This document shows, piece after piece, positions 12,019 through 63,819 of a stretch of DNA of 64,000 nucleotides (its first letter is position 1; the number at the start of each line of letters is the position of its first letter). The stretch is taken from contig NC_135248.1 of assembly GCF_947623445.1 (NCBI RefSeq), positions 2,598,977 through 2,662,976 on the forward strand, read 5' to 3'. A program made the translations under genes and the position numbers. The stretch is from Clavelina lepadiformis (lineage: Eukaryota). A model generated the notes under the pieces. It was not told where the DNA came from. It did no database searches and saw nothing but the letters and a program-made list of their open reading frames with translations.

Positions 12019-12157
12019 TAATAGGACTATTTGTACCAAAAACCACGTCATAAGTGCCCGCAAAAATATCGTTTATGTTGTTTTTATTTTCAATGTTCAA
12101 CCTTAAGTCTATTTTCTAATAGATTAAGTCATTGTTCTGAAAAGTAATCACTAAGAC

Positions 12158-12410: not shown

Positions 12411-12569
12411 GTGTGCGTTAGATCATACACTGACGTAGTGAATTGAACTGTTTCAATTTTCTCCTGATTTTATTTGCAATACATTATGTGGTCATACTTG
12501 TAAGCTTTCAAAAATCATGTGACAATTTTGTTAGTTATGAATGTTTTATGCAGCTGATTTGCTTTTCAG

Positions 12570-12635
12570 AAACCCAAGCTCTTATAAATATCGCCATAAG
12601 ACCACTTCAGGACAAAATATCACGCCTGTGTCAAG
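12570..12635 (+). CDS. collectin-like gene, exon 2 (U2)
   Basis: U1 coordinates + 8496; identical sequence. Confidence 0.55.
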
Positions 12636-12736
12636 GTTTGGTGCCGTTGTTAATAATAATGTTTTCTTTGATATGATCTTATCGAGTTTTTAGATTTGTT
12701 AAAAAATAACCTGACTTTTTTCATCCTATCAGAAGT

Positions 12737-13925
12737 GGTATACCGACACTTAATCACGCGACACTTAATCACTCGACACTTAATCACCGACACATAATCA
12801 CTAGAACATTTAATCACGCGACACATAATCACTTGGATGCGACAGCACTTGGACAGCGCCTTTGTCTATACTCTATAGCCTGTCTATACCGTCTTTGTTC
12901 TTTCAACTGTACACAGTACATTTTGAACTTGTTCCCGGTCTTATTTCTGCAGCAGTTTACTGCCTCGTTCAAAATAAAACGCGAGCAACCTACGATCGCT
13001 TCCTTGATGCAATTAAAACAATGATCCCCACTGCTGCACCGGAATGCGTTTTGCTCGATTTTGAGACTGCCGCAGTAAGTGCTTTCCGCACAGCATTTCC
13101 TACTGCAAATGTTAGGAGTTGTTATTTTCACCTTACACAAAGCGTCCTGCGCAAAGTTAATGAAATTGGCATGAAATGTGACTACGAGTCTGATGAGTGA
13201 TGACGAATTAAGAACAGCTGATAGGTGTTTACCAGCCTTAGCCATGGTCCCTTCCTCTGACGTAGTCGAGTCATTTCTGATCTTAGCTGATAGCATGCCC
13301 GATCACGAGAAGATGCCTGAGCTGCTTTCGTATTTCGAACACACATATATCAGAGGCAGACGACATCCGGGACGTGGTGAAAATTACGGCTCAGCCATCT
13401 TTCCAATCGAAAGTTGGAATCATTACGAAGCCGGGGCAGGTTGCATTGCAAGAACCACAAATGCAGTCGAAGGTTGGCATTTTGGTCTCGAAGTGCTTTT
13501 TCAATGCCACCACCCGACATTGTGGACTTTCATACAGGGAATTGAAAAAGACATTCAAATGCAACGTGCAAAGTTTCTGCAAGGAATTGCTGGTACTCAA
13601 CCTTCTATTCCAATACGGTACAAGGCACTGAAACTGCGCGTGCAAAACACAGTTGACCGTTATCTGTCAAGAGATTTTAGTTTATCTTCGTGCAGTTGCT
13701 TACATTTCCCATGCATGACATTGTTACCGAGTGTGTACCGTAGCCTTATCTGCGCAAGCAATGTTTAATCATTTTAACAAGTTCTTTTCAGGTTTATATT
13801 TGTTTTTTCGTGTGTAGACATGCAATTTTCGATACTGTAAATGTGTGATTAAATGTCCGAGTGATTAGGCCTATGTGTCGGTGATTAAGTGTCGCGTGAT
13901 TAAGTGTCACCAAACCATCAGAAGT
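12737..13925 (+). mobile_element. MULE-like element, U2 copy
   Basis: U1 coordinates + 8496; identical ORFs 12862-13200 and 13178-13768. Confidence 0.6.
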
Positions 13926-14500
13926 AATATCGCCATAAGACCACTTCAGGACAAAATATCACGCCTGTGCCAAGGTTTGATGCCGTTGTTAATAATGATG
14001 TTTCTTTGATATGATCTTATCGAGTTATTAGATTTGTTAAAAAAGAACCCCACTTTTTTCATCCTATCAGAAGTAACGCCATGCGAGCAAAGTTGTTTTG
14101 TTTGACTGTGTTTTCGCTGTTTTCTGCGCACGTACGAAAATTCTCCTGCTGGTCGGCTACATTCTGCCCTTTCACGCTTTAGATTTAAATTCATTTAAAA
14201 TAAATTCAACAGGATGTTATGAAAGCCATTATAACTGGCGTTGAAAAGTACGTAGTTCAGACCGAAAATGCTAGTTCTTGACTATCCCTTGGAAGCTTGT
14301 AGTATCAACCATGCTCAGAAATCAGGAACGTATCTGAAAGTCTTTAGTCGGCCTATACTAAGCTAATAAAAAATTGAAAATTTGTTATTTAACTCGTTTC
14401 TTCTTTGTACTTCTTCCTAAATGATATACTATGCTTATCAATGCTGACACTGGCAGTTTCTTATTGGATTAATTACTTTTTACAACTACTTCTTTCCAAG

Positions 14501-14648
14501 TTGCTGAAAGTGGTTGGTATACGCCGTTTAACGGATATCAATATCGCCTTACTGAAACTGAACAAAACTGGCAAGAAAGTCGACGTTTGTGCCAAGCAAT
14601 GGGCGGTGATCTGGCCGCTGTTGGAATGAGGAACGTCGTCATTCGAAG
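14501..14648 (+). CDS. collectin-like gene, exon 3 (U2)
   Basis: U1 coordinates + 8496; identical sequence. Confidence 0.7.
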
Positions 14649-14756
14649 GTTAGAAGTGGAATAAAACTGTCACATAAATGAAATATTACCACAACCACGT
14701 CCAGAAATGTGCATCACTGTAATGGCAGAAGACAACGAAGTAACGTTTTTTTGCAG

Positions 14757-15021
14757 GAAACTTCTCACCGAAGTATTTAAATTTGTCCAAAATGTGTGGA
14801 TAGGACTGAATGACATTTCCCGAGAAGGACAGTGGATGTGGATAGACGGTGTACAAGCGGCTGAAGGAAACGTCAACTGGTTAGCTGGTGAACCAAACAA
14901 TTCAGGAGATGAAGATTGTGCTGTGGTGAATGTGCCTGGCCACAACGGTGCAGTCGATTATCCATGTTCCTGGACCAAAATCGCTTTATGTGAAAAAATT
15001 GTCACAGACACTTGTCAGTAA
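14757..15021 (+). CDS. collectin-like gene, exon 4 (U2)
   Basis: ORF 14707-15021 is identical to 6211-6525. Confidence 0.75.
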
Positions 15022-18000
15022 GAGTTTGTGCAAAACTTGTGTCGTCTGCTTTTGATTGCAAAATTCCGTTTGCTGTCATCCATCTGAGTATTACGTCATT
15101 ACGTATAATCTTCCAGTGAACGCTTTAAAAACACGGATAAACTTGTAAAAATAAAACTATAAATAAACTACCTAACACGAAGCAGAGGTGATTAATAGCA
15201 GAATGCACGTAAAACATTTTATTCGACTCTGTTTAACTTGCATGTATGTTTTCTACGACGTCCTGCATTCATCAGCAGCGTTAAAGTTGGAATGATGTAA
15301 ATAACGGAAATTAATCAATAAACAACAACAACAATGTTTTAACAAGATAAAGAATATCATTGCTTCTCAGCCGGTGAGTCGCAAAGCTTTTTCAGGTGGG
15401 CCACGTAGATTGCTGAAATGTTTCTTTGCAAAACTGCAATATCTGTACCGCAAATGGGCGCCACCCACCGGCGGACCCAGCAACAACTAATATTGCACAC
15501 AAAAAAAGACAATTGAAGTATGGACAAGTGTTCAGTCGAGTCGTTGCAGTGAACGATAGCGTAATACGCGGACTAATTTGAATGCTGCAGACCCAACGGT
15601 TCATAAGATTTCACCTACGCATGAAATTGCAGAGATGATTGCAAAATTAACATGAGGTATCATATAAGTATATAATCGTTTTCCCTCAATGCCAACACAG
15701 TTACAACAAAAACAAAAAAAGAAAATAAGCATTAATGCTGGTTATGCAAAAGCACATGACGAAGGTGTTAAACTGCTTACTTATCAATAATGCAATTCTT
15801 TGGGTTGATTTGAACGGTATGACTTCGCTTTACATGTATATTTACTACAGAAATGGCTGCAAGAACAAGAGTTATAATGATGCAACACTGCCCAATAAAT
15901 GCGATCGTAAACATACACCGCAAAGTTAAGATTATTATCATTCCCATAATTTTGTGTGTCATTGTAAACGCTGTACTATTATTTGGTTCAAAAGTAGTGG
16001 ATGGTTGTTGTTTTGCACCGACTGGTAATAGGATCGCGGGTTGTTAATACGTCAACAGTAGCAATCGTACACAACAACGCAAGGCTTGAAAGGGAACATT
16101 GTGAAAGCCGTTTAGAAAAAGGTACAATGTGCTTTGTCCTAAGGTGCAAATCGATTTTTTCCAGAAAACAAAGTAAGTCCTACAGGACAAAAAGCCAAAC
16201 TTCGTTATTTCAGTTTGTTTCATTTCAAAGAACGCTATTGAGACTAAAAACTCTGATACTGACAGTGAACGGTTTATCAGCTTACAGAAACAGTGTAGTT
16301 TGAAAAGTTTTCATGCGTGAAATTTGAGAAAACATTTTGCAACATGTTAATTGATTGAAGATCCTGAAAAGTATAGAAAATTAATTAAGATTAAAGATAA
16401 CAAAAATGTAAAAGTAAAACAGCAAGAAAAATGATGACAAGTTGAGGGAAAATCATTTGTTTACTACGCGACTGGTTACAGTTTTCGTGAATCGGTCACC
16501 GACATTTTGCCGTCACACAACACACAAAATTTAAAACCAAAGCTCAGTTAGTGTTATCATAAATACATAAGTAGCCTTTACACAATACACATAAAAACAA
16601 ATATACACAGTATATATATATATATATATATATATATACTGTGTAATGTGTATATAAACTACCCGCAATTTGTCTTAACATTTTGTGTGTTATGCAAAGT
16701 GTAGTCGGTTGTGAAATAAATGGTAAGAAAAAAACGAACCGTAGCAGATATGACAGATAAATAAGCGCGTTGGTAGATCTCGTTATTTTAGAATGAGAGG
16801 CAAGTGCCGTAATAAGTTAACTTGAAAGTAATAAAAGGCTTTGTGTAAGTTCACTTGAAAATTTATGTTCATGAGTATTTATAAGAACCAAGCATTTAGC
16901 TCCAAAAGTCTGCCGCAAAATGTCGCAAATTTACCACTCACTGTAAACTGGGTGTTGAGAATTTTGACGCTTCAATGTAAAATCGACTTGCATGCCCAAC
17001 TCCGAATGAAGTATGGATTGTTGGGTACTCAATAGTACATCATGTGTATAGACAGCACGGATCAATATATTTTGTTCCTTTTTCTTCTGCTCTCCCAAAC
17101 CCACAGTAACCTCCCATCAGGAGAATCCAGAAGTCTAAACCATAGGTCGGCAACCAGCGGCTCTTTCATCTCTGTGCTCTGGTTCCCGCCACTCAGAGCC
17201 AATGAGCTGATTTAGGAAAACTTAATGTGATTAGCTAATGGTGGTTATTAGTGTCACGATGTAATAACTTAATGCGTTTGTCTGATTATTATTCAGATTG
17301 TTTTATGGTGATGTGGAAAATCTTATATAAACACTACCCAGTGGTTTTCGCGGGCATACAACGCATGACTGCTTGCCACTCACGTGATCCTAAGTTTGTT
17401 TTTGTTCGAGGTCGCATGACTTGGATATTGGTCTTTGTTTGATGACTCTGCGGATGTTCATCGTTGTAGTGAGAATTTTGTGAGGTTAACTACTGAAGTT
17501 TTTACGTCTAACTGTAAAGCATTGGTTCGAATTATACATATAGCGTTAGGTTTTTTGTTTTAAGTATCCAATTAGGTGTTGTGGATCTGAGTAGGCTTTA
17601 GTTTGGCGGAAACGAAACCAAATGGCTCTTTCAATGCTAAAGGTTGCCGACCCGTGACTAAACAATTCGCGTTTGACCACATTTTCTACTTTGTTCTCCG
17701 GGATACCCAGATTACTCACCTAAAGTAATTCATGGTCGAACCGTTGATATTTTACCGCTTGGTATAGCAAGCATGACTTGTTTTGCAAGTTTTTTTAGGC
17801 ATTCTGGTGACTTCATCATACCATCCTAGTTAGTAATGTGACGGTTACGTCACGAGTCACGAGTTGTTTTCGAAATGCTGGAGTTTTATTTTGGCATCTT
17901 GCAATTCAGTTGTTGATCGGACTTGAATTCTCTTCTAATGACGTTCAGATAAATTACCTCGCTTGATCTGGTGTGCCATATATATACTGTTGTCATGTTT

Positions 18001-20327: not shown

Positions 20328-20953
20328 GTTTGGTGACGTTGTTAATAATAAAGTTTTTTTGATATGATCTTATCGAGTTATTAGATTTGTTAAAAAAGAA
20401 CCCCACTTTTTTCATCCTATCAGAAGTAACGCCATGCCGGCAAAGTTGTTTTGTTTGACTGTGTTTTCGCTGTTTTCTGCGCACGTACTAAAATTCTCCA
20501 GCTGGTCGGCTACATTCTGCCCTTTCACGCTTTAGATTACAACCTGTCATGGGCATTCAGTTTATTTTTGTTTTACGTAAAATGATAAAATGCATTGAAC
20601 AAAGATGTCGTTCTATCAAAGAATTGGTAATATTAATTAGGCCGAAATAACCAAGAAAGTTCAACAGGATGTTATGAAAGCTATTATAACTGGCGTTGAA
20701 ACGTACGTAGTTCAGACCGAAAATGCTAGTTCTTGACTATATATCCCTTGGAAGCTTGTAGTATCAACTATGCTCAGAAATCAGGAAAGTTTCTGAAAGC
20801 CTTTAGTCGCCCTATACTAAGCTAATAAAACATTGAAAATTTGTAATTTAATTTATTTTTTACTTCTTCCTAAATTATAAACTACGCTTATCAATGTTGA
20901 CATTGGTAGTTTCTTATTGGACTAATTACTTTTTAAAGCTGCTTCTTCCCAAG

Positions 20954-21101
20954 TTGCTGAAAGTGGTTGGTATACGCCGTCTAACGGATATCAATATCGC
21001 CTTACTGAAACTCAACAAAACTGGCAAGAAAGTCGACGTTTGTGCCAAGCAATGGGCGGTGATCTGGCCGCTGTTGGAATGAGGAATGTCGCCATTGAAA
21101 G
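20954..21101 (+). CDS. collectin-like gene, exon 3 (U3)
   Basis: Anchored to ORF 20894-21082. 148 nt, CTLD N-half intact. Confidence 0.65.
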
Positions 21102-21209
21102 GTTAGAAATTGAATAAAAATGTCACATAAATGAAAAATTACCACAACCACGGCCAGAAATGTGCATCACTGTAATGGCAGGAGACAACGAGGTAACGTT
21201 TTTTTGCAG

Positions 21210-21474
21210 GAAACTTCTCACCGAAGTAATTAAATCTGTCCGAAATGTGTGGATAGGACTGAATGACATTTCTCGAGAAGGACAGTGGATGTGGATAGAT
21301 GATGTACGAGCGGCTGAAGGAAACGTCAACTGGTCAGCTGGTGAACCAAACAATTTTGGAAATGAAGATTGTGCTGTGGTGAATCGGCCTAGCTACAACG
21401 GTGCAGTCGATGTTCCGTGTTCCTTGACCAAATTCGCTTTATGTGAAAAAATTATCACAGATAATTGTCAGTAA
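21210..21474 (+). CDS. collectin-like gene, exon 4 (U3)
   Basis: ORF 21160-21474 encodes ...WIGLNDISREGQWMWIDDVRAAEGNVNWSAGEPNNFGNEDCAVVN...CEKIITDNCQ*. Confidence 0.7.
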
Positions 21475-27335: not shown

Positions 27336-27958
27336 GTTTGATGCCGTTGTTAATAATAAAGTTTTTTTGATATGATTAAGTTACTAGGTTTGTCAAAAAA
27401 TAACACGACCTTTTTCATCCTATCAGAATTAATAGCATGCGAGCAAAGTTGTTTTGTTTGACTGTGTTTTCGCTGTTTTCTGCGCACGTACTAAAATTCT
27501 CCAGCTGGTCGGCCATATTCTGCCCTTTTACGCTTTAGATTACAACCTGTTATGCGCATTCAGTTTATTTTTGCTTTACGCAAAATGATAAAATGCATTG
27601 AACAAAGATGTCGTTCTGCCAAAGAATTGGTAATATTAGTTAAGCCAAAATAACCAAGAAAATTCAACAGAATGTTATGAAAGCTATTATAACTGGCGTT
27701 GAAACGTACGTAGTTCAGACCGAAAATGCTAGTTATTGACTATCCCTTGGAAGCTTGGAGTATCAACTATGCTCAGAAATCAGGAAAGTTTCTGAAAGCC
27801 TTTAGTCGGCCTATACTAAGCTAATAAAACATTGAAAATTTGTTATTTAATTCGTTTTTTCTATGTATTTCTTCCTAAATTATATACTACGCTTATCAAT
27901 GTTGACATTGGCATTTTTTTATTTGACTAATTACTTTTTAAAGCTGCTTCTTCCCAAG

Positions 27959-28106
27959 TTGCTGAAAGTGGTTGGTATACGCCGTCTAACGGATATCAAT
28001 ATCGCCTTACTGAAACTGAACAAAACTGGCAAGAAAGTCGACGTTTGTGCCAAGCAATGGGCGGTGATCTGGCCGCTGTTGGAATGAGGAACGTCGCCAT
28101 TCGATG
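27959..28106 (+). CDS. collectin-like gene, exon 3 (U4)
   Basis: Anchored to ORF 27863-28087. 148 nt. Donor TG|GTTAGA. Confidence 0.65.
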
Positions 28107-28215
28107 GTTAGAAATGGAATAAAACAGTCACATAAATGAAATATTACCACAACCACGTGCAGAAATGTGCATCACTGTAATGGCAGAAGACAACGAAGTA
28201 ACGTTTTTTTTGCAG

Positions 28216-28480
28216 GAAACTTCTCACCGAAGTAATTAAATCTGTCCGAGGTGTGTGGATAGGACTGAATGACATTTCTCAAGAAGGACAGTGGATGTGG
28301 ATAGATGGTGTACGAGAGGCTGAAGGAAACGACAACTGGGCAGCTGGTGAACCAAACCATGCAGGAAATGAAGATTGTGCTGTGGTGAATGTGCCTCGCC
28401 ACATCGGTGCACACGATGTTTCATGTTCCCGGACCGAATTCGCTATATGTGAAAAAATTATCACAGACATTTCTCAGTAA
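28216..28480 (+). CDS. collectin-like gene, exon 4 (U4)
   Basis: ORF 28253-28480 encodes WIGLNDISQEGQWMWIDGVREAEGNDNWAAGEPNHAGNEDCAVVN...CEKIITDISQ*. Confidence 0.7.
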
Positions 28481-34424: not shown

Positions 34425-34584
34425 CTACTTCCCAATTGGCTGAAAGTGGTTGGTATACGCCGTCTAACGGATATCAATATCGCCTTACTGAAACTCAACA
34501 AAACTGGCAAGAAAGTCGACGTTTGTGCCAAGCAATGGGCGGTGATCTGGCCGCTGTTGGAATGAGGAATGTCGCCATTGAAAG
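34425..34584 (+). CDS. collectin-like gene, exon 3 (U5). The canonical acceptor is mutated (ccaag|ttg has become ccaat|tgg). The coordinates assume use of an in-frame cryptic acceptor taaag| 12 nt upstream.
   Basis: Anchored to ORF 34320-34565. Using aaag| at 34423-34424 keeps the frame and adds 4 aa (V becomes ATSQL). Confidence 0.35.
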
Positions 34585-34692
34585 GTTAGAAATAGAATAA
34601 AACTGTCACATAAATAAAATATTACCACAACCACGGCCAGAAATGTGCATTACCGTAATGGCAGAAGACAACGAAGTAACGTTTTTTTGCAG

Positions 34693-34957
34693 GAAACTTC
34701 TCACCGAAGTAATTAAATCTTCCCAAAATGTGTGGATAGGATTGAATGACATTTCTCGAGAAGGACAGTGGATGTGGATAGACGGCGTACGAGCGGCTGA
34801 AGGAAACGTCAACTGGGTAGCTGGTGAACCAAACAATTCAGGAGATGAAGATTGTGCTGTGGTGAATCGGCCTGGCTACAACGGAGCACTCGATTATCGG
34901 TGTTCCTTGACCCAATTCGCTTTATGTGAAAAAAATGTCACAGACACTTGTCAGTAA
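34693..34957 (+). CDS. collectin-like gene, exon 4 (U5)
   Basis: ORF 34643-34957; EPNNSGDEDCAVVN motif intact. Confidence 0.65.
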
Positions 34958-36883
34958 GAGTTTGTGCAAAACTTGTGTGGTCTGCTTTTGATTGCAAAGT
35001 TATGTGTGCTGTCATACTTCTCAGTCTTACGTCATGACTCTGTTTAACGTGCATGGATGTTTTCTACGACGTCAGCAGCGTTAAAGTTGGAATGATGTAA
35101 AATACGGAAATTTTAACAATAAACAACAACAACAACAATGTTTTAACAAGATAAAAATTATCATTGCATCTCAGCCGGTGAGTCGCGAAGCTATTTCAGG
35201 TGGGCCACATAGATTGCTGAAATGTTTCTGTGCAAAACTACAATATCTGTACCGCAAAGCGGCGGCATTGTGAACATTATAGAGCTGATTGTGATCATAC
35301 CCTATTGTTTTTGAAAAAAATTAATTTTATTCGACTCGTCTGTGTTATGCGAATTATTATAATATTTCATTTCTTCATGCAATATAAATATAAAAATGTA
35401 TAACGTCATTGTACTTTACGAATTAAAATTGCTGACGCGCCATACTGCAGTCCAAACACCAAGTCCGCACAGTGCAATAGGATGAACGACTTTGGTCGGG
35501 AAGAAAATGAAACGATGGTGCGCTTGTGGCTGCTTCAAGTCGGTGTGATGGCGATCCAACAGGAGAAAAAAATTGCACGGCCTTTAGCTAGGGTAGCGAT
35601 CCTATTATTTGCGTTCATGACGTCATCGACGGTGTCAGGGTTGTATGAAAAACCGGTCACTTGTACGTAAATGAAAATTATATATGTATTGTGCTTCAAT
35701 CGGTATGAATGACTATGTGTAAGTGTATCATCCACTAAATTATTCATATTTATGGCTATGAGTGATTGCATTCGCATACTTAAGATGACTTGGTGTTACA
35801 TAACTTTGTGTTGTGTAACACAAATCAAAAGGTGGAAAAGATTTAAAACATCCACTACAGATTTTATCACATACCGAGTGTTGTAATTCTGCATTTCCTC
35901 AAAGAATCGGTATGAAGTGACAAAGTACATAAAAAAGTATGTTTATCATAGCAGATACTTTTTGAATCTTTCTGGACAACTCAAAACAAGTCTAAAAGGT
36001 TGCTTAACGTTTCTGGCTTCCAGGTGTTGTCTTTTTGCCTTTTCGTCAATAGAGTGAGCGCCAAGCATCCAAGTTTATATGATTTTATTTCTTTACTTCG
36101 TTTCGTCATAGCTATAGCAATCTGGGTCAGGTTGCTGATTTGGTGTCGTTAACTCTTACGTTACTTAGCCCAATATACACCATACAGTACCCATCTGTAT
36201 GATGAATCAACGTTATGCATTTAAATTGAACCACAGCTTATACGACTATTTATACTTTTATAGTAACGATAAATTACTATGCGTGGTTTCATAACATGAC
36301 GTCATAACACATACTAATCTACCGCTTGTAACTCCATTAGTTTTACTCAACGTATGCACCATATTAAGAAAACCCAAACATATTAATAATAATTTTTCGT
36401 CACCTTCCCTGACGTACAGATAAATCACCAGCGTTTTGTATTGATTTTACATAACACAATTTGACGCCGTGCGAATAATGCAAGTCAGTACATCTCAACT
36501 GGTGGGTTGTCAAATTTTTTCAGGCCGCTAAGAAAGCCGAAAAGGTTCAGTACTAAATTTTGCATGAACGCGTGTTAGTGTAATTGAGCGGCTCCGTTTG
36601 TGTCGTATTAGGTATGAGGCTGAGTTTTGGAAGAGCTCTTCGCGAATATCTAAATGGTTTCGAAAAAAGAAGGGAGCTAGTTTTTATTACTTTGCATTGC
36701 AAAGCATTGTATATTGCGCTTAGTTGGAAGGTAAAAATTTGCAGAATGATCTTTAAACCTTGCAGGACTTAATAAAAGACAAAGGTGGTTTTGCGACATA
36801 AACTGCAAAGAGTCTAATTTGTTTTGATCTTTTGTCCGCCAACCTTGTGATATTTCTTGAAACATCTTTACTGCAAGGTTGAT

Positions 36884-36956
36884 ATGAGAGTAACCAGAAC
36901 CCTACTTCTAGTTCTTGTATCCTCTGCATATGGGCAACCATCCTTTTATGATTTAC
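36884..36956 (+). CDS. LDLa-repeat LGR-like GPCR, exon 1: signal peptide
   Basis: ATG at 36884 encodes MRVTRTLLLVLVSSAYGQPSFYDL. Donor AC|GTAAGT, phase 1. Confidence 0.55.
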
Positions 36957-37176
36957 GTAAGTAAAAGTAAATTTTTACAAATTTGTCGTGTCATGTACAC
37001 AATATCAAGAAGTGTACTGTGCACATGTTGTATTGCCTTTGCTTTCGAGCATTATCATTTATGAACCAAAAATATTTTGATGGAATGTGACACATCTCCG
37101 GTTGGCCATTACAGGAATGAGCTTTGTAGCTATTCTGTTTACTTGATGTCCAACTTATATTTCTTGGTATACTTAG

Positions 37177-37683
37177 GTGATTGCCATTACCACAGACCGC
37201 GTTGTGGGTCTGATGAATTCAACTGCAAATGTGGAGATGAAGGATCTGATCACGAACCAGAATGCATTCCATGGTCGTCCGTGTGTAACGCCTTCAAAGA
37301 TTGCTCCAACGGGGCTGACGAAATCGATTGCCAGTGTCCTTCCGGCAGGTTTCAATGCAGCGTTTGTGAGCGCGGTGGCCTGGAAGATTGCCGCTCGGTG
37401 TTCCAGTGCGTCGATGAAAGCTTGTTGTGTGATTACGAAGAGCAATGCGTGACGTCAAGGGACGAATATGGCGGACAATGCGTAGAGGATCAAGGTTTTC
37501 AATGTGGGGACGGTCTTTTTATAACATCATGGTGGGAATGTGACGGATTTGATGACTGCATTAATGGAACTGATGAAAAGAATTGCCCGGATTGTTTGTT
37601 TTCTCACCAGCCCTATGCATGTAAATGCAATAGAAATGGCACAGAAGGCTGTGAAACGATTAACGCGTGTTTTGGAGTTTCAG
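37177..37683 (+). CDS. LDLa-GPCR exon 2: several LDLa-like cysteine modules
   Basis: Acceptor tacttag|. Anchored to ORF 37077-37733. 507 nt, phase 1 to phase 1. Motifs CGSDEFNC, CSNGADEIDC, CDGFDDCINGTDEKNC. Candidate GC donor CAG|GCAAGT at 37684. Confidence 0.55.
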
Positions 37684-38051
37684 GCAAGTTTAAATTATTT
37701 TTGTTCAAACTAATTACTAAATTAACATTTTAAAGACAAAAAAGTTGTTCTTATTTCTCTGCATAACGTTGCACACTTCCTTGAGCTGAAGATGCTACGC
37801 TACAAACTTTCAACGATTTTTTATGAAATGGTTGCGGAGTAAAAGATTATTTTCTTAACAACTTTTAGCCGCCAATTGTGCGAATACTGTTAAGTTAAAA
37901 CTTCAAGCTTGTGTGGATACGTGACTGCGCATTATGCATTGTATTGTGTGGACAAAATTTGTTTGTTGTACATCCAAGTTGGAGGATGTTTCATTTCGTT
38001 GGAAAATGCTTTTTCACCTTAAAATAATACAAAATGTAAACAATGTATTAG

Positions 38052-38192
38052 ATGCATGTGATGGATACGACTATTGCGAAGATGGCTCAGACGAACAAAT
38101 TTGCGACACATGTTCATCTGATCAATTAGTATGTGCCTGTAACCAAAACGGCAACAATACATGCGAAGGAAGGGCGTGCTATGACAACAACT
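38052..38192 (+). CDS. LDLa-GPCR exon 3
   Basis: Acceptor tattag|, donor ACT|GTAAGT. Encodes (D)ACDGYDYCEDGSDEQICDTCSSDQLVCACNQNGNNTCEGRACYDNNC. Anchored to ORF 37934-38266. Confidence 0.6.
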
Positions 38193-38288
38193 GTAAGTCA
38201 TTGTATGTTTGTCACCGAGTGCTTGATATCAGTATAATCGGATTATTCAAAGATAACAATAAGTAAACAAATATTTTTCATTTCGTAG

Positions 38289-38435
38289 TAAAGTGCAATG
38301 GGCACGCAGACTGCGAGGATGGAAGCGATGAATGGAATTGTGATTGTCCATCGTCGAGACCTGTTCGTTGTGAATGTAACCAGGAAAATAATTACACGTG
38401 CCAAGGACATGGATGGAAGTGCTTCAAAGAAACTG
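38289..38435 (+). CDS. LDLa-GPCR exon 4
   Basis: Acceptor ttcgtag|. Encodes KCNGHADCEDGSDEWNCDCPSSRPVRCECNQENNYTCQGHGWKCFKET. The only in-phase donor is CTG|GCAAGT, a GC-AG candidate. Confidence 0.5.
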
Positions 38436-39092
38436 GCAAGTGCATGCGTTACCAGAAAGTAGATTTAATGACAGCTTACAATTTGTATTGTATCGTGTTT
38501 TCGCCATTCTCTGCGGAGAAAAATCACAACCGCTATAGCACAATAAAGAACAGACTTACAAACAGTTAGGGAACAAGAAATCAGAGGCAAAGCTGAAAGG
38601 GCAAATATGCAAGATGGCAATAATGCAAATGTACTACAAAAGGTCAGGTTATCAGGAACAAACACAGCAACAGCAAGAACAACGAGTTTCCGAAGCTGTT
38701 AGCAAATAATAAGAAGTTCATAAGTTTAACATTTTCAAGATATCATTTCATTCCGTTCTGGCATTGGCCCCGGTTTTGCTTATGCGAATTATATATATTT
38801 GCTATGTTGTAGGATATATTAAGGATACTAACATAATGATATCAAAAAAACATATATAAGCGTATATAGTTTGCTTGGTTTTAGTTTGAATTAAGATTTT
38901 TGCTGTAATAGTTTATTTGACTACTGCTGCTATACTAATAACATAATTGCTGTCCACTGGATTTATTACACTATCACAGCTGTATTAATATATTCACAGA
39001 TTTTGACTTTTTAACGTCGTAGCTGTTGCACGATTTTTAGCTCAATTTCTACCTGTAACTACATAAATTGTATAAATGTTTGTGATTTGCAG

Positions 39093-39233
39093 ACTTATGC
39101 GATGGATACGTAGACTGCGAAGACGGGAGTGACGAAGGATATTGCTTCCCGTGTCCATCAACAAGACCGCTCAACTGTGCTTGCAATCAAGAAGACAGCA
39201 CATGCCATGACTTGCCATGTTATACGGAAAGTT
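39093..39233 (+). CDS. LDLa-GPCR exon 5
   Basis: Acceptor tttgcag|, donor GTT|GTAAGT. Encodes (D)LCDGYVDCEDGSDEGYCFPCPSTRPLNCACNQEDSTCHDLPCYTES. Confidence 0.6.
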
Positions 39234-39333
39234 GTAAGTCAAAACATAAATAATTACCAAATTGTCTCAAGCAGGCGTTGTATTATCAGCACACTTTGTT
39301 GGTTCGTGTGACTTATCTATTATTTGCATGTAG

Positions 39334-39483
39334 GGAAATGCGATGGTTTCGTTGATTGCGAAGATCACAGCGATGAGGAAAATTGCGACACTTGCAGCTG
39401 GTGGGCACCGGAACGTTGTGCCTGCAACCAAGCTGGTAACAATACGTGTGAAGGATTCGGCGAGCATTGCTTTCATGAGGAAT
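39334..39483 (+). CDS. LDLa-GPCR exon 6
   Basis: Anchored to ORF 39324-39641. Encodes (W)KCDGFVDCEDHSDEENCDTCSWWAPERCACNQAGNNTCEGFGEHCFHEE. Donor AAT|GTGAGC. Confidence 0.6.
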
Positions 39484-39787
39484 GTGAGCATTATCATATA
39501 TATGCTTTGCAAGCATTGCGTAATCGTAATATGTTTGGTTTGAAAATAGTTCTTTTGGTAAAAGTGAAAAATCTTAAAAGTTTTAAATCTCTTCAAAGGT
39601 CTCTTAGAATTTATACCCTTGCAGCTGCAACAGAAAGTTAGCTGTTTTTCCTTAAAAGTTGCGGTCCCTTAAGATTTCTATTAATTCTATTAACTATTCT
39701 ATTAATATTGCCATCGCCAAAATCAAACCTTGCAAAAACTCCTGTCTACGACATTTCACATAATTTTCTACGACGTTTAATTGACAG

Positions 39788-39934
39788 ACATGTGCGATGG
39801 ATACCACGACTGCGCAGATGGAAGCGATGAATGGAATTGCCACATTTGTCCGGAAACTAGACCTCTCAATTGTGGTTGTAACAATGCAGATGGAAACAAC
39901 ACATGTGAATACTTGTCGTGTTACCAAGAAAGCT
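39788..39934 (+). CDS. LDLa-GPCR exon 7
   Basis: Acceptor ttgacag|, donor GCT|GTAAGT. Encodes (Y)MCDGYHDCADGSDEWNCHICPETRPLNCGCNNADGNNTCEYLSCYQES. Confidence 0.6.
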
Positions 39935-40036
39935 GTAAGTAGGGCTTGCTTTGTGTAAAATCCTGGTGTAATGAAATATTAGTTTTTCTCTTGTTAATTG
40001 TGACACGATGAAATGGTTTTTAATCATTTTTCATAG

Positions 40037-40186
40037 GGAAATGCGATGGAATACTGGACTGTGAAGACCACAGCGACGAATTGGGTTGCGAGGTTTGCAC
40101 GTCGTCGCGACAACATCGATGTGCTTGCAACCAAGTTACCAACAACACGTGCGAGGAACATGATCCACCATGTTTCAGTGAAGACG
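40037..40186 (+). CDS. LDLa-GPCR exon 8
   Basis: Acceptor tttcatag|, donor ACG|GTAAAA. Encodes (W)KCDGILDCEDHSDELGCEVCTSSRQHRCACNQVTNNTCEEHDPPCFSED. Confidence 0.6.
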
Positions 40187-40317
40187 GTAAAATTGTCTCT
40201 TAACAAACTAATCTTGGTGTAAGAAATATGACGACTTAGACTGCTGTTTACAAACAAAGGTTTGCAAACTAATTCTTCTAATTCAAATATTTAATAAAAA
40301 TAATTCTGTCATAATAG

Positions 40318-40467
40318 CTTTCTGTGATGGTTTCTATGACTGCACTGACGGCAGTGATGAACTTAATTGCAATTCCTGTCCATCGTGGAAACCTCGCACT
40401 TGCGCCTGCGCCCAACATGACAATAAAAGCTGTCAAAATTATGGCTTACAATGTTATTCTGATGAAG
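40318..40467 (+). CDS. LDLa-GPCR exon 9
   Basis: Acceptor ataatag|, donor AAG|GTGAGC. Encodes (A)FCDGFYDCTDGSDELNCNSCPSWKPRTCACAQHDNKSCQNYGLQCYSDE. Confidence 0.6.
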
Positions 40468-40645
40468 GTGAGCTTAATTTTGTCGGCTTTCCATGAATAA
40501 AAATTAACTCAATAATTGAAAAATTTTAACTCCCTTTAAAAACTTTGAAAGCATTCAAGTGATTTTTGTCAACAATAAACCATAAAATAGATAGTCAATT
40601 AATACATGCACGAAATTTATGTCATAAATTAATTATGATTTGCAG

Positions 40646-43131
40646 AAAGATGCGATGCTAAATCGGATTGCGACGATTCATCCGACGAACTCAATTGCAC
40701 CTGTCCAGTGAATACATTCAAATGTTTATGCTTTCTAGAGGATTATCCTACTTGTGGTGTCAGTCAGGGCTGCCTCTCAATGCAACACGTGAATGATGGC
40801 AAATGTGACTGCGACAGCTGTAACGACGAAGACCAAGTGATAACAATTCACAAACGGAAATGCGGTTCTTGCGATTTGAACATTTTTCGGCTGAAAAATA
40901 TAACAGTTTGTATTTCGCCTTGGTGTGACGTCGCAACTTGTTTCAAAGTTCCTTCTCTAAAACGCCTGGACCATGATCGTCCAAGTCATGAGTACATTTG
41001 CACTTCATTTTGTTCCAACGATACTGATTCAAGCCATTGCACTGTCATGCAATGCGCAGATGGAACTCCTATTCTGGGCGAGATGGATTTCTGCAATTAC
41101 AGGAAGGATTGTGAAGACGGAAGTGACGAAATAACAGCCGACTTCGGTTTCAAATGTTCTTCAGTATTCTCTCCTCGCGCATGCGCACTTCCTCAAGTGA
41201 ACTTGTACGACAACAAAGCAGATTGCTATGATGGGTCTGATTTATGTTTTGACGAAAGTGGAGCATTTCATTGCTTCAGATGCCTGGACAGCAAATTAAT
41301 CATCGCTTCGCAACAAGTGTGTGACGGTAAATTAGATTGCTATGACTCATCTGATGAGTGCCTTTGTGAGGATGTCGCTGCAACGCAATGTGTAACGACC
41401 GAGCATTGCAACGTAAATACAATCATAGGAGATGAAAGCGCGGCTGGTATTAATTCATCTAAACCATGTATTGGTGATACTTGCCAAAGCTTTCTTGAAG
41501 CGGCTACGATCGAGTGTCAAACCAAGCAGGCCGTGGTTGTAGCGACCCTGTGCGACGGTAGACCGGAGTGTAAAGATTTTTCGGACGAGTGCAAGTCGTG
41601 CCCTAGCCCTCCACCATTCTGTTCTGACGTATGCGCCACATTCTACCTCATAGGAGATCGTTATTGCGATGGCGAGATTGACGAGGCTTGGAAGTTCCTC
41701 AATAACTCCAATTGTCCTCAAGGATTTGATGAACGCCTGTGTTCGAAGAGATTCGATTGTAAAGCTGGGACTAAGGTCAGTGTAGACATTTTACAGCGAT
41801 GCGACGGGAGATTGGATTGCGACGATGGAAGTGATGAGAATGATTGTCCTCATCGACACAAATGTGAAGTTAAAGGAGGATTAATATCAATTCCTGAAGC
41901 TCTTGTCTTAGATGGACAGCGGGATTGTATCGATGGGTCGGATGAGTTTAGGTCTGGAATATTTTCATCACGTTTAAATTTGATCAGCGACAAGCACTTA
42001 GAAGGGTGGTTTTGGATGGCTTCATTACTCATTATGTTGGGTAACGGCCACGTCATTATATCGACCATCAAGCGGCTACGAAGAAAGCATGTTGGGCTTG
42101 AGGCTAAATCTAACCATATTCTACTCCTTAACCTTTCCATTTCTGACTTCCTTATGGGAGTATATTTGTTAATAATCTTGGGAAAAGGAGTGGAATACGC
42201 TGGTAGCTATTCTGAATTCGACTATGAATGGAGAACAAGTTCAGTTTGTTCATTTGCCGGAGTCATCTGCATGATTTCCAGCGAAACGTCTTGCTTTGTG
42301 ATGCTACTCCTCACTGCTTTCCGATTTTCGTCCGTGCTATGGCCGTTTAATGGTCATGTGAGGTCGCCAAAACTTTGGACAGCAGCGGTCACTTTTGCGT
42401 GGTTGGTTTCAATTTTACTTGCCACATTGCCCACATTTCTTCCTCATTTTAGTCGAGGAATTGTCTTCGTCAGTCAATTTGCGACATCTGATACAGTTAC
42501 TGAAGAGTTCCTCATATCGTTTGCTTGTAGGTTGTCGGGTATCACCAACACGACAATGGAGGAATCTGGGGATCCCTTGACAACTGCTAAAGCATTTCTA
42601 AAGAATTCTTTTTCTCAGTTTGCTCCACAAGGGGTGATTGGGTATTACGGAACGACCAGCGTGTGTCTGCCGACATTCTTTGCGACTCGTAACGACAGGT
42701 TCTGGATCTACTCTGTCGTTATCATCACATTTAATCTTCTATCATTTTTATCTGTCTGTGCTGGTTACATCACGATTTGGAGAAAGGCATCCAAGACGCC
42801 TGGTCAAAGCCCACGATCCAAAAAGCAAAGTGGAACGTTGCAGAGACGCATCACCTTGCTCATAGTTACAGATATGTTGTGTTGGATTCCCGTTTGCATC
42901 ATGACTTACGTGAGTGTGGGAGGCGTTGACCTTCCTCCAGGCATTGAAATCTTTACAGCTGGTGTACTTTTGCCGATCAACAGCCTCTTAAATCCATTTA
43001 TTTACTCCACATTTGTTGAAAAGCAAGTAAAGTTGGTCCTACACAAACTAGGTGCACGACCAGCACTATCGACAAGTTCACCAGGAACTGAAATGCGAGA
43101 TCTTTCACAACGAGGTTCAACGGTTAATTGA
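40646..43131 (+). CDS. LDLa-GPCR terminal exon: about 8 more LDLa-like modules, then a rhodopsin-type 7TM domain of LGR (glycoprotein-hormone/relaxin receptor) type and a C-terminal tail
   Basis: Acceptor tgatttgcag|. ORF 40708-43131. LDLa signatures CDGRLDCDDGSDENDC and CDGKLDCYDSSDEC. 7TM at ~42007-43020: TM1 WFWMASLLIMLGNGHVIISTI, TM2 LNLSISDFLMGVYLLIIL (compare NLAFADFCMG.YLLLIA of LH/TSH receptors), TM3 followed by FRF, TM7 NSLLNPFIYSTF. No LRR region. Confidence 0.85.
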
Positions 43132-60531: not shown

Positions 60532-61920
60532 GTAAGTGCACAACTTAGCGTACTGCATGCGCAAAAGCGTAAGTCGTTTAGACTGACTTTGTAGGTTTTG
60601 GGTGAAGGAACGCAATAATTTTACCAAAACAGTCGCTCTCTTCGTAAAGCTATGAAGGCTGTTATAGTCGCTCAAAAACACACCCAACTTACTGTATGAA
60701 ACGTACAGCAAACAATTTTTAGTGGATCTAGGGCATAGTAAAAACCAAAGGGGTTACACGAAGGACAGGCAGTGTTGTGATTTTCTCCTTGCTACAACAA
60801 TCCGCTCATTCCTATTAGACGTCGATTTTAGGTGCATATAAACTTGATGGAAAGCGCTTGAAGTAGCCCACAATTTGTACAAGCCATCTACCAACAGCAA
60901 CTTCCGGCGTCGTCCATAAATAGATTCATTATTTTCAATTTAACTCATTCATGGGACCATGGCTACTTATGGCAGAGTTTTGCGCGTTTTTTTACCTCAG
61001 CTGCAATATTTGCCAACTCACAAAACTTCGTCTAAGGTAGTTGTGCCAACTGTTGTGTGATTCAGGCCTATTTATACATCACAATAGTCTCAATGCTTTA
61101 CATATTGCACCCTGTCGCATAATATCAAACGTCACTGTACTATTTTAGCATAGTGTATGCCACTGACGCTTACCCTCAAGTCAGGCAAGTAACTTAGTCA
61201 AGTCATGTGATAACGAGAATAAACTCAGTATATTTGCAAGTAGCGTGCATACATCTTTTCCACACGAGATATAATATGGTTGTATGGGTTTAGAATTTCT
61301 TTGATTTCTATAATCTATAAAATAACAATCTATAAATACACAAAAACGTAATGTTAAGTCTGTCGTAATATTTTATTGGTAGAGTAAAACTCGCTATAAA
61401 TCTTATTGCCCGCCGTAAAAATGTATACAACTCGGCATTGTGTCGAGTGGTTTTTAATGATTTTCCGCTATTTGCCCTAGGTTTAAAAATGCTGAACTAG
61501 GCTCGCTTGGGTCAACGGCTGCAGATATATTTAGATAAATAGCGCGTGTGTGTATTTTAAAAGTTACAAGAGCACGGTTTAACCCGTACGCTTGCACATG
61601 CTTAAAAACTACTTTCGACGTTCACTTTGTGTTAAAAGCGACGCTGAAAACACTTTGTTGCAAGAGCATTATCCAGCTATTTTGACAACATGTCGGCCGC
61701 ATGCACGTTTTTATCTAAATCTGTCCGTGGCAAAGACGTGAAATTTCCTGTGTCACGTGCAGTTATTTGTACGTTCGCTCGTGCGTCATTTCCTTCTATG
61801 CCGGAAGTAGGCAGTTTAGTTGAATTTATTAACCTACAGTTACTGACGTACAGACGTACGGCCAATACTTTTTGACGTCTACATATACGTTATATTCGTG
61901 CTACTTGTACTTTGCTTCAG

Positions 61921-62067
61921 GATAGCGACCTACGTACACTCTTCGGAACCGGTTCTTGGGGTAGTTTGGAGCATTTGGATCTTTCCTTCACCCATGTGAC
62001 GTCAGCATCGGTCGATGTCTTACGTTATCTCCCTAACCTACGTCATCTCAACTTGTGGGCAACTCAG
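61921..62067 (+). CDS. CMIP: CMIP-like exon (start of the LRR region)
   Basis: Anchored to ORF 61912-62154. ttgcttcag| DSDLRTLFGTGSWGSLEHLDLSFTHVTSASVDVLRYLPNLRHLNLWATQ |GTAATT. Confidence 0.65.
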
Positions 62068-63819
62068 GTAATTTTATTTCCTAGAATTTATTTTCGATAC
62101 ATCTGGTTTGTGCTTGAAATAACAGCCACGTATGGTTGTGTAGTGTGGTACTGACCAAGTCCCGCTACTACTACAGTTGCTGCAACGATCTCGCCATAGT
62201 TTGTTTTGTTAATATTCAAGTTTAAACGCACAGTGCACTAGAGTTTGTCATTAAGGGCCGGGGTAGGTCACAGAAACATTTAATTTCAGACTCTGTTGGG
62301 CACAACGGGTAATTTATTGTTCCTGAGATAAACAAAGCTTCACATCACATGATGCTCATTGCTCATTTCACGCGGTTAAAGCAGACCATTTTGACGGCCA
62401 AACAAAGGGAATAAAGCTGAATTAAAATCAAAGCATGGTTCAAATTTAACTCGACGATTTGGACTAATTCTTACCTTGATTTGATTGCAATTTTGCTCCT
62501 TTCGTTTGCAGCGCGATTAAAATCTGCTTCCATCGTTTCATTCAGTTATAACCAGGGTTTCCACCGGTCTGGACTCGAAATTAAGGACGACTGGGAAACG
62601 AAAGAAGAATACTTCCTTAAACAGTGCACAACAGGAGAAGGCAATCAATGTTCTTAAAAAAAAAGAAAAACGAGACACTATTTGCATGTTCTTAATTTTG
62701 GGATCTTTTTTGTACAAAATGGTATACTAAAGGTGTCGACATGCCCAAAACTGAAACCTCTGCCCCAAAAATACGACAAAAGTAAGGACGCAAGTGAACA
62801 TAAGGACAAATCTTAGAAATAAGGACGATATGGCAACCCGGGTTATTAGAGTATATGGGATTATAGGTGCTTGAATATTTATGCCAGTCGACGCCATTAT
62901 TATCTTCCAGGCTTTTAAGCCGGTTAATTATCGATTGCTTAGTTTTTGTTTTCTACATAAGCTCCCAGAGATTAGTGTTTTTATAAATAATGTATAAGCG
63001 AGAAAGTCAGACAAATAGACTTTTCATTCTGCGCTGCTGCTTTTAAACTAGCTAAATAATGATGATTCAAGGTGAAGCGAGAAAAGCGACCAACATCTTT
63101 CAATTATGGATTCCTTGTACTGTGCGTATAGAAAGTTGACGTCATTGTTTGTTGTTTAGCATTGTGACGCAGGTTTCGCCATTGTTGATAATTTTTTCGG
63201 TCAACTTTTTTACAACGAACGGCAGCTGCTGTTTTTAGCCAAATTTATTTTTATTCATTTTTCTTAAAGTTTCGTACCAGAATTTATTTCCCCAATTTTT
63301 CATGTTCTTAAAAAGTTTATAAATATTTTCGCGGTCAAAAGCGATGGAGTCGTCTATTTATTAAATGCAAATTGGAAGTCGTTTAAATTTAGAACGCGCG
63401 AAAGCAAAACGCAGATAAATTGTTTAAAAGATGTTTATCGTAAAATATCGTCAAGTGCTGAAACTTTCAGTTTGTTTAGAAGCTTTCAAAGTCTGACGCT
63501 TGTGAGTCTTTATTTACGGAATTAATAATACAAAGGCTTGGGTAAAAGCACTCAACTTCTTTATTTAGAATATGTAAATTTTTTCTCGTTTCCCATTTTG
63601 AAAGACAAAACAGTTCTATTTTCATCGACAAGCAAAAATCCATTATGCGAGTTTACACACCAAACGATATATGATACTACACGCAAGAAATCTGGCTGTT
63701 GTAGACCTATAATGAACCCCAACACCTAAAACAACTTGCACCAGTATGAACTTAAATGCTGAAAGGTGTGTAAAGCTAACAACCTGCCTAATTGCAACTA
63801 TTTTGTTCATACTTGACAG

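Follow-up and report, generated by a model that had tools for sequence, protein, structure and literature searches.

Among the receptors of Ciona, Kamesh, Aradhyam and Manoj described in 2008 a set of 14 "LDLRR-GPCRs", which carry 1-10 tandem LDL-A repeats (LDLa modules), lack leucine-rich repeats (LRRs) and have a transmembrane region resembling that of the INSL3/relaxin receptors (PMC2396169). The family was presented as tunicate-specific (BMC Evol Biol 8:129), and the same study already discussed a different ligand-binding mode for it. In the relaxin receptor RXFP1, the LRRs hold a switch formed by the second extracellular loop (ECL2) and the hinge in its off-state, and hinge residues control receptor activation. 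True receptors of the RXFP/LGR3 type are reported to be lost in urochordates (PMC11863921). In the literature searched, no expression, ligand or signalling results were found for any LDLRR-GPCR or for the gene described here.

The window analysed is a stretch of 64,000 nucleotides from Clavelina lepadiformis, an ascidian (Tunicata, Ascidiacea); all coordinates below are positions within it. An intact protein-coding gene, LOC143471153, occupies positions 36884-43131 of the + strand and matches RefSeq isoforms X1 and X2 of that species at 100%. The 1,363-aa translation of the first-pass annotation is exactly XP_076825646.1 (isoform X1), whereas isoform X2 (1,313 aa) leaves out a cassette exon of 150 bp, which came to light in the translated intron; exact mapping of the RefSeq protein gives 9 exons for X2 and 10 for X1. 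The open reading frame is unbroken over the 10 exons, with GT/GC-AG junctions that are all in phase 1. A putative signal peptide opens the encoded protein and is followed by 15-16 LDLa-type modules, a short hinge and, last, a 7TM domain of the rhodopsin type. The best overall explanation, with a probability of roughly 90%, is that LOC143471153 is an intact LDLRR-GPCR gene derived from a type C LGR, in which the LRRs have been lost and the LDLa modules multiplied, and whose product would be activated through the switch mechanism proposed below.

Table 1. Features of LOC143471153, in window coordinates.
Feature	Position	Strand	Description
Exon 1	36884..36956	+	Start codon and putative signal peptide (MRVTRTLLLVLVSSAYGQ...), as read from the sequence; GT-AG
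Exon 2	37177..37683	+	Cysteine-rich N-terminal region, first LDLa modules; GC donor (GC-AG intron)
Exon 3	38052..38192	+	Repeat-register, 141 bp, phase 1-1
Exon 4	38289..38435	+	Repeat-register, 147 bp, phase 1-1, GC donor
Exon 5	39093..39233	+	Repeat-register, 141 bp
Exon 6	39334..39483	+	Repeat-register, 150 bp
Exon 7	39788..39934	+	Repeat-register, 147 bp
Exon 8	40037..40186	+	Repeat-register, 150 bp
Cassette exon	40318..40467	+	150 bp, AG...GT, phase 1-1, in-frame; one extra LDLa unit; in X1, not X2
Terminal exon	40646..43131	+	Last ~6 LDLa-type modules, hinge, whole 7TM, C-tail and stop in one ORF
Juxtamembrane degenerate LDLa-like module DGQRDCIDGSDEF	41911..41949	+	Kept in Ciona members
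Hinge remnant FSSRLNLI	41962..41985	+	Alignment to RXFP1 and GRL101-like proteins
7TM domain, TM1 to NPFIY	42007..43005	+	Pfam 7tm_1, PDB matches, AlphaFold model, motif table
TM2 motif NLSISDFLMGVYLL	42130-42171	+	
FRF at E/DRY position	42319-42327	+	
ECL2 insert, family-specific, ~60-70 residues	42436..42651	+	Not aligned to RXFP1; predicted strand-helix-helix-strand
ECL2 Cys motif CLPTF, after ECL2 insert	42664-42678	+	
CWIP	42880-42891	+	
NPFIY	42991-43005	+	

In isoform X2, Pfam recognises 13 stretches of Ldl_recept_a (E = 6e-46) and the 7tm_1 domain (E = 1e-19); E-values of this size exclude chance. By the number of acidic C-x-D-x-SDE motifs, X1 has 16 modules and X2 has 15, in agreement with the earlier estimate of about 16. 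The cysteine patterns of the modules are all intact, and units 3-11 have an additional two-cysteine linker loop. Exon 3 encodes the C-terminal half of one module and the N-terminal half of the next. The terminal exon holds the family-conserved core GFKC...CVLPQ.NLY...CFRCLD.

No match to LRR families was obtained at E <= 10, either with the protein (Pfam) or with the three + frames of 34960-40710, which cover the upstream region and all introns. A single uninterrupted exon encodes the final LDLa-type modules together with the hinge and TM1, which rules out the splicing of an LRR exon into that stretch. The first-pass annotation's claim that the array runs into TM1 with no LRR in between is thus borne out, and LRR exons between exon 9 and the 7TM exon, whose discovery it had named as grounds for refutation, are absent. 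The relatives are alike in this respect: no LRR was found by Pfam scan in one Clavelina paralog and one Phallusia family protein, none is listed among the precomputed Pfam domains of the approximately 23 Clavelina family entries, and none was seen in the named Ciona and Styela members. The LRRs are genuinely missing, and not through a gap in the gene model.

The 7TM region (7tm_1, E = 1e-19 in isoform X2) is of LGR type and closest to the relaxin-type receptors, as had been proposed from its motifs, and the sequence elements then quoted were all recovered where they had been placed. A phmmer search of PDB gave RXFP1 as the best match (7e-26), followed by TSHR (1e-19), LHCGR (1.5e-18), FSHR (4e-16) and LGR4 (8e-9), with GPCRs other than LGRs at 2.6e-7 or weaker. 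As a control, a Ciona LGR5-like protein preferred LHCGR and LGR4 over RXFP1 in the PDB search. The best 34 Foldseek matches are all LGRs. In a neighbour-joining tree (distance-based, 297 columns, 200 bootstraps), the protein and the published Ciona LDLRR-GPCRs formed a clade of LDLa-only ascidian receptors (87%), itself nested in type C (relaxin/GRL101; 75%) and in the LGRs (84%); support is moderate and the tree makes no placement between C1 and C2. A 7TM domain grouping outside the LGR clade, which the first-pass annotation had also named as grounds for refutation, was not observed. The protein fell outside the sampled GRL101-like group and was not sister to human RXFP1. It has no LRR ectodomain for binding a ligand, as an LRR-containing receptor does, and is LGR-derived by homology of its 7TM domain and hinge.

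By blastp, residues 389-1286 align colinearly with residues 23-911 of the 918 of the Ciona LDLRR-GPCR ci0100151225 (E = 6e-110), and six other Ciona members match at E <= 1e-46. LOC143471153 therefore combines the features that define the family, namely LDL-A modules, absence of LRRs, a type C transmembrane region, homology to the Ciona proteins and tunicate origin. "Tunicate-restricted" rests here on the named members only, which come from Ciona, Styela, Phallusia and Clavelina. It had been suggested that known LGRs all keep an LRR domain and that an LDLa-only LGR would be an unusual new architecture with its own mode of ligand engagement. The combination itself, an LDLa-only ectodomain on an LGR 7TM domain, is real; its novelty is not, because the same design was described in 2008 in Ciona proteins to which the Clavelina gene is directly homologous. 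The gene thus adds a new member to an orphan family that was already known.

The hinge FSSRLNLI is homologous by alignment to I396-S397-S398-L-E-N-L402-L403 of RXFP1 and to FSSC[ED]DL[ML] of GRL101-like proteins. The family pattern is F-S-S-x-x-E/N-M/L-I, whose F, S, S and I are kept in 78-79 of the 79 members. ECL2 retains the C-phi-P core, but at its fourth position this receptor has Thr and 70 of 79 relatives have Arg, not a hydrophobic residue, so the ECL2 plug may work differently from that of RXFP1. R3.50, CWxP and NPxxY are conserved across the family together with the hinge and C-phi-P, while the acidic E/DRY residue is lost family-wide and replaced by Phe or Tyr; such a loss may point to coupling that is altered or constitutive. 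The ECL2 insert has conserved residues in the family alignment and is predicted with confidence to be folded (pLDDT about 86-94; 84.8 for the whole AlphaFold model, pTM 0.78). It co-occurs with LRR loss, being long in 80 of 86 LDLa-only representatives and in none of 7 LRR-bearing ones. ci0100151225 was modelled in 2008 with this segment spliced out. The insert, the RXFP1-like hinge switch and the loss of the E/DRY acid are possibly undescribed details of the LDLRR-GPCRs.

By analogy with LDLR/LRP and RXFP1, and from sequence conservation, we propose that a protein or lipoprotein ligand would be held through its basic residues in acidic, Ca2+-dependent pockets of the LDLa array. Once bound, the ligand would shift the modules close to the membrane against the hinge and enlarged ECL2, and the ECL2/hinge switch would then flip and activate the LGR-type 7TM domain. 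In the off-state, the part played by the LRRs in RXFP1 may fall to the ECL2 insert together with the proximal LDLa-like modules. Coupling might be to Gs, again by analogy.

It is possible, though we would bet against it, that the family is instead a diversifying tunicate recognition repertoire, immune or chemosensory, whose variable LDLa arrays, alternatively spliced cassettes included, sense many foreign or environmental proteins and not one hormone. Such a role would suit the lineage-specific expansions (263 representative clusters related at E <= 1e-30, about 23 Clavelina entries and 14-28 in Ciona), the differences in LDLa number among paralogs and isoforms, the Ciona ESTs from haemocytes, the lack of olfactory-type GPCRs in Ciona (PMC2396169) and the tandem array of C-type lectin genes adjoining LOC143471153. 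It fits less well with the membrane-proximal half of the ectodomain, which is well conserved between orders, as would be expected if that half had a common ligand or co-factor.

It seems distinctly unlikely that the protein is mainly a receptor for endocytosis or scavenging, as LDLR/LRP are, with the 7TM domain serving mostly as an anchor or for arrestin-driven internalisation and with little G-protein signalling. The array does resemble LRP ligand-binding clusters, several family members are named "LRP1/LRP1B-like" in sources, the E/DRY acid is gone, and the main source of the Ciona ESTs is blood and haemocytes, cells with phagocytic or scavenging activity. However, the retention of R3.50, CWxP, NPxxY, the hinge and the ECL2 C-phi-P core would not be expected of a mere anchor, and no LDLR-type FxNPxY is evident in the C-tail. 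That LOC143471153 is a decaying, non-functional paralog is highly improbable: large families commonly hold pseudogenes, and FSSRLNLI and CLPT depart somewhat from the consensus FSS..EMI and CMPR, but the frame and splice junctions are intact, the cysteine patterns and all 7TM microswitch motifs are present, and RefSeq models two isoforms. The closest paralogs carry identical hinge and ECL2 variants, which are thus subfamily traits and not signs of decay. An ordinary GRL101/relaxin-type LGR whose LRR exons escaped both reader and annotation is effectively refuted by the uninterrupted terminal exon, the empty searches of the upstream and intronic DNA and the LRR-free relatives, even though the nearest LRR-bearing relatives in an exhaustive search, GRL101-like proteins such as that of Patiria miniata, do join many LDLa modules to LRRs and one LRR-like ORF lies at 61912-62154, some 19 kb downstream of the stop codon.

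Taken as an LDLRR-GPCR, the Clavelina receptor can be set against four known systems. With the LDLR/LRP clusters it shares arrays of Ca2+-binding LDLa modules with D-x-SDE, a likeness also seen in the automatic naming of family members, but it lacks YWTD beta-propellers, EGF modules and a single-pass transmembrane segment with an FxNPxY tail. It does not belong to that class, since of its domains Pfam finds only LDLa, in addition to the 7TM domain.

RXFP1 and RXFP2 (C1) are similar in the 7TM sequence, in the hinge (aligned to I396/S397 and L402/L403), in the ECL2 C-phi-P core, CWxP and NPxxY, and in having an LDLa module, which in RXFP1 is needed for activation. They have one such module and about 10 LRRs, which bind relaxin and autoinhibit the 7TM domain, whereas the Clavelina receptor has 15-16 modules, an enlarged ECL2 and Arg/Thr in place of a hydrophobic residue at the fourth ECL2 position. 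Identity with the C1 receptors (RXFP1/2-LGR3) was rejected on this architecture, on the tree and on the reported urochordate loss. The GRL101-type receptors (C2; Lymnaea GRL101 and the Patiria miniata protein) likewise have multiple LDLa modules, a type C 7TM domain and a hinge of the same motif family. By contrast, they keep an LRR block between array and hinge, a short ECL2 of 17-23 residues, counted from the TM4 Pro to its Cys, the hinge Cys and, in most cases, the acidic E/DRY residue; the Clavelina receptor lacks all four. The lack of LRRs and the position in the tree speak against C2 identity.

The Ciona LDLRR-GPCRs are the closest: tandem LDL-A repeats directly precede a relaxin/INSL3-receptor-like 7TM domain without LRRs, homology is colinear over ectodomain and 7TM, and the family has undergone a tunicate lineage-specific expansion. 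The differences are those of order (Phlebobranchia versus Aplousobranchia for Clavelina), of module number (1-10 reported versus 15-16) and of the alternatively spliced LDLa cassette of the Clavelina gene, while the ECL2 insert of about 60 residues, missing from the 2008 models, is present in the current NCBI models of Ciona.

The window DNA is eukaryotic and contains introns. In a large forward-strand ORF at 40708-43131, Pfam matches LDLa five times and, after these, a rhodopsin-type 7TM domain (7tm_1, E = 3e-20); more LDLa signatures are found in short ORFs upstream of it. In a protein search, the match at 100% was 'uncharacterized protein LOC143471153 isoform X2 [Clavelina lepadiformis]', a protein of 1,313 aa from a species that taxonomy look-up places among the aplousobranch ascidians. 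Nine X2 exons were placed by exact mapping of this protein onto the window. All eight introns are in phase 1; six are GT-AG and two are GC-AG (37684-38051 and 38436-39092, following exons 2 and 4, both with GCAAGT as donor). The last intron (40187-40645) contains an in-frame cassette exon, and its inclusion yields the 1,363 aa of isoform X1 (XP_076825646.1). The 1,363-aa gene model proposed in the first-pass annotation was thus correct, and had already been annotated. No further receptor copy is present in the window, since tblastn with the protein gave no HSP beyond 36.8-43.2 kb.

Features located in the window, with the basis of each assignment
Feature	Position	Strand	Basis
Receptor exon 1	36884-36956	+	exact mapping
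Receptor exon 2	37177-37683	+	exact mapping
Receptor exon 3	38052-38192	+	exact mapping
Receptor exon 4	38289-38435	+	exact mapping
Receptor exon 5	39093-39233	+	exact mapping
Receptor exon 6	39334-39483	+	exact mapping
Receptor exon 7	39788-39934	+	exact mapping
Receptor exon 8	40037-40186	+	exact mapping
Cassette exon, 150 bp, in frame	40318-40467	+	inside last receptor intron
Receptor terminal exon	40646-43131	+	exact mapping
C-type lectin gene copies, five in tandem	6004-6522, 14500-15018, 20953-21471, 27958-28477, 34436-34954	+	Pfam Lectin_C 1.3e-10
8,496-bp tandem repeat, first two units	1-8496, 8497-16992		
MULE-transposase-like ORF pairs	4366-5272, 12862-13768	+	Pfam MULE 2.8e-11

The receptor gene has directly upstream, on its own strand, an array of C-type lectin genes whose CTLD exon pairs share 74-100% protein identity. 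The lectin ORFs were rejected as 5' exons of the receptor: they terminate with a stop codon, they make up a five-copy array, and the receptor begins with a start codon and putative signal peptide of its own, a secreted-type N-terminus that appears intact. They are separate genes. Lectin_C is fused at the N-terminus of P0232, a distant LDLa+LRR relative. The first two units of the 8,496-bp repeat are 100% identical in all compared segments, which points to a duplication that is very recent or else to an artefact of assembly; a third unit, from 16993, has diverged (89-96% identity, with deletions). Each of the two identical units carries one pair of MULE-transposase-like ORFs, and the third has no matching ORF of that size. 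These ORFs look like a transposon remnant within the lectin repeat.

Pfam analysis of the full X2 protein identified LDLa in 13 stretches (E = 6e-46), together with 7tm_1. Counts of the acidic C-x-D-x-SDE motif give 15 modules in X2 and 16 in X1, in line with the estimate of about 16 in the first-pass annotation, and the motifs quoted there are all present (NLSISDFLMGVYLL, NPFIY, CDGRLDCDDGSDENDC, DCIDGSDEF and WFWMASLLIML). By its sequence, the array is of the calcium-binding type. Read across exons, units 3-11 (46-51 residues, eight cysteines each) consist of a two-cysteine linker loop (C-P-x-x-R-P-x-x-C) and then a complete six-cysteine LDLa. Introns fall inside the modules, so that queries with single exons match the Pfam profile in its second half alone; apparent 'half LDLa' repeats, for which single-exon ORFs matched profile positions 21-37 only, are therefore an artefact.

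No LRR family was detected in the full X2 protein by Pfam, even at E <= 10, and no LRR repeat was found at the same threshold in the three forward frames of 34960-40710, which covers 1.9 kb upstream and all introns. Only one match in that scan bears an LRR name, LRRC37AB_C (E = 0.12, with no stretch above threshold), and this family is not a leucine-rich repeat. The lack of an LRR ectodomain, as first claimed from the sequence, holds for the protein, the introns and the upstream DNA, and missed LRR exons were rejected on this basis. In addition, a single unbroken exon encodes the last modules, hinge and complete 7TM, so no exon could be spliced between them. An LRR-like short ORF (...LEHLDLSFTHVTSASVDVLRYLPNLRHLNLWATQV...) is located at 61912-62154 (+), about 19 kb downstream of the receptor stop codon; it presumably belongs to a separate gene and is unable to add to the receptor ectodomain.

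The 7TM domain is LGR-type. Its best match among all PDB sequences (phmmer) is RXFP1 (7e-26), followed by TSHR (1e-19), LHCGR (1.5e-18), FSHR (4e-16) and LGR4 (8e-9), while the top non-LGR match is GPR119 (2.6e-7). The preference for RXFP1 is specific: the Ciona LGR5-like receptor with LRRs, run as a control, matched LHCGR and LGR4 better and reached just 2.6e-7 with RXFP1. An AlphaFold2 model spanning the last two LDLa-like modules and the 7TM was confident (pLDDT 84.8, pTM 0.78), and the top 34 Foldseek matches to it in the PDB were all LGRs. A neighbour-joining tree (Kimura distance in numpy, 297 columns, 200 bootstraps) was built from Clavelina, Ciona, Phallusia and Styela proteins, GRL101-like LDLa+LRR proteins and the TM regions of human RXFP1, TSHR and LHCGR, with five non-LGR Ciona GPCRs as outgroup. 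Here, the receptor groups within an LGR clade (84% bootstrap), as the first-pass annotation had proposed; type C receptors form a clade at 75%, and the ascidian LDLa-only proteins are monophyletic at 87%.

As architecture this is little news, since LDLa-only LGR-derived GPCRs have been published since 2008 and the Clavelina gene is in RefSeq. The first-pass annotation was right about what the protein is, and its claim of novelty does not stand. Kamesh, Aradhyam & Manoj 2008 (PMC2396169) described in Ciona intestinalis an 'LDLRR-GPCR' cluster of 14 confirmed members with 1-10 tandem LDL-A and no LRRs, whose TM regions resemble INSL3/relaxin receptors, and explicitly set this architecture against LGR7/8 and snail GRL101. 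They also listed 14 'unclassified LGR-like' models with short N-termini, and observed that matching ESTs came mostly from blood and haemocytes (PMC2396169). In comparisons with their supplementary sequences, Clavelina residues 389-1286 are colinear with 23-911 of the 918 residues of the Ciona member ci0100151225 (31% identity, E = 6e-110), and six other Ciona LDLRR-GPCRs align at E <= 1e-46. No later paper with the family name or a function for it was found in the searchable literature. True RXFP/LGR3-type receptors were, according to a 2025 study (PMC11863921), lost in urochordates.

When only the 7TM was searched exhaustively with HMMER against 1.84 billion representatives, 263 clusters were obtained at E <= 1e-30. 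The closest 110 or so have LDLa motifs without LRR motifs, apart from an LRR-only scallop protein at rank 48 (P0162), and the named proteins looked up among them are all from Ciona, Styela or Phallusia. Pfam-confirmed LDLa+LRR+7TM proteins, for example a GRL101-like protein of the starfish Patiria miniata, begin at about rank 110. About 23 Clavelina entries appear in the protein search listing. Many close relatives (36-40% identity) are found in ENA assembly ERZ25067582 (L001, L002), called as single ORFs of about 750-900 aa that correspond to the large terminal exon with the last LDLa modules and the 7TM; a reverse-transcriptase ORF adjoins one of them. The receptor adds a new member, one already annotated, to a known family that is still orphan, tunicate-specific among its named members, large, and spread over three ascidian orders.

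What can be added to the 2008 description, as a useful residue, is the alternative LDLa cassette together with an observation on ECL2 and the hinge. Between TM4 and the conserved ECL2 cysteine, about 65 residues could not be aligned to RXFP1 by phmmer. The distance from the TM4 proline to this cysteine is 75-91 residues in all current ascidian LDLa-only models, versus 12-23 in LRR-bearing LGRs. Among the best 150 representatives, it reaches at least 55 residues in 80 of 86 LDLa-only proteins and in none of 7 LRR-bearing ones; of the six short 'LDLa-only' cases, at least one (P0232) is LDLa+LRR by Pfam. The insert contains near-invariant residues across 79 family members, is predicted by AlphaFold2 to fold as strand-helix-helix-strand (pLDDT about 86-94), and has no sequence relative in the PDB (best E = 0.67). 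The 2008 Ciona models have just 15-27 residues at this site. In ci0100151225 the sequence jumps from '...MGKTGYF' to 'FGYFSATSVCM', flanks that are separated by about 60 residues in P0170, the current model at NCBI; the older prediction had evidently spliced the insert away, so that it was hidden at the time of the family's description. An alignment gap of 48 columns between ci0100147431 and its current counterpart P0129 (loop of 27 versus 75 residues) suggests that this model likewise lacks the segment. Of the 'unclassified LGR-like' Ciona models, at least one (ci0100147271) does have an insert-like stretch at ECL2.

When RXFP1 is deprived of its LRRs, its 7TM becomes constitutively active via ECL2 and the hinge. 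A natural LRR-less receptor should thus be constitutively active or otherwise braked, and the ECL2 insert, which appears with LRR loss, is a hypothetical candidate for such a brake. By analogy with LDLR/LRP, the LDLa array would bind basic residues on the surface of a ligand, either a protein or a lipoprotein; binding would be relayed to ECL2 by way of the degenerate module next to the membrane (DGQRDCIDGSDEF) and of the hinge, and ECL2 would activate the helical bundle. The ascidian family might be a natural experiment in LGR activation, in which a conserved, folded ECL2 mini-domain of about 60 residues was gained with the loss of the autoinhibitory LRRs and, with proximal LDLa-like modules, replaced their control of an RXFP1-type switch; expanded, isoform-variable LDLa arrays would allow direct signalling by haemocyte-expressed receptors on binding (lipo)protein or protease-inhibitor-type ligands. 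We give this full reading a chance of roughly one in five. To our knowledge, direct signalling on LDLa-array capture of such ligands has been shown for no GPCR.

Alternatively, the receptor may have a mainly endocytic or scavenger role, or the family may be a recognition repertoire that diversified for immune or chemosensory use. That the gene is a pseudogene or a mis-annotated LGR is effectively excluded, because the gene structure is intact and LRRs are absent across the family. The family bears on the question of whether LDLR-type ligand capture can signal directly through a GPCR, and an insert that tracks LRR loss offers a testable handle on how an LGR 7TM is regulated without LRRs.

The family appears to keep the hinge and ECL2 elements that activate RXFP1 without the LRRs that restrain them. 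In the Clavelina receptor the LGR switch is, as far as its residues indicate, retained and the class-A 7TM intact. R3.50, CWxP and NPxxY are kept in ascidian LDLa-only members, whereas the acid of E/DRY, usually Asp or Glu in GRL101-like proteins, is replaced by Phe or Tyr in nearly all those sampled and by Val in one. The LGR-wide ECL2 motif C-phi-P-phi is kept as C-[M/L]-P, but its fourth residue, phi across LGRs, is Arg in 70 of 79 family members and Thr in the Clavelina receptor. Before TM1, the hinge reads F-S-S-x-x-[E/N]-[M/L]-I, and its F, S, S and I are invariant in 78-79 of 79 members. This segment aligns with FSSC[ED]DL[ML] of GRL101-like proteins and with I396-S397-S398-L-E-N-L402-L403 of RXFP1, where I396 and S397 are autoinhibitory and L402 and L403 are needed for activation.
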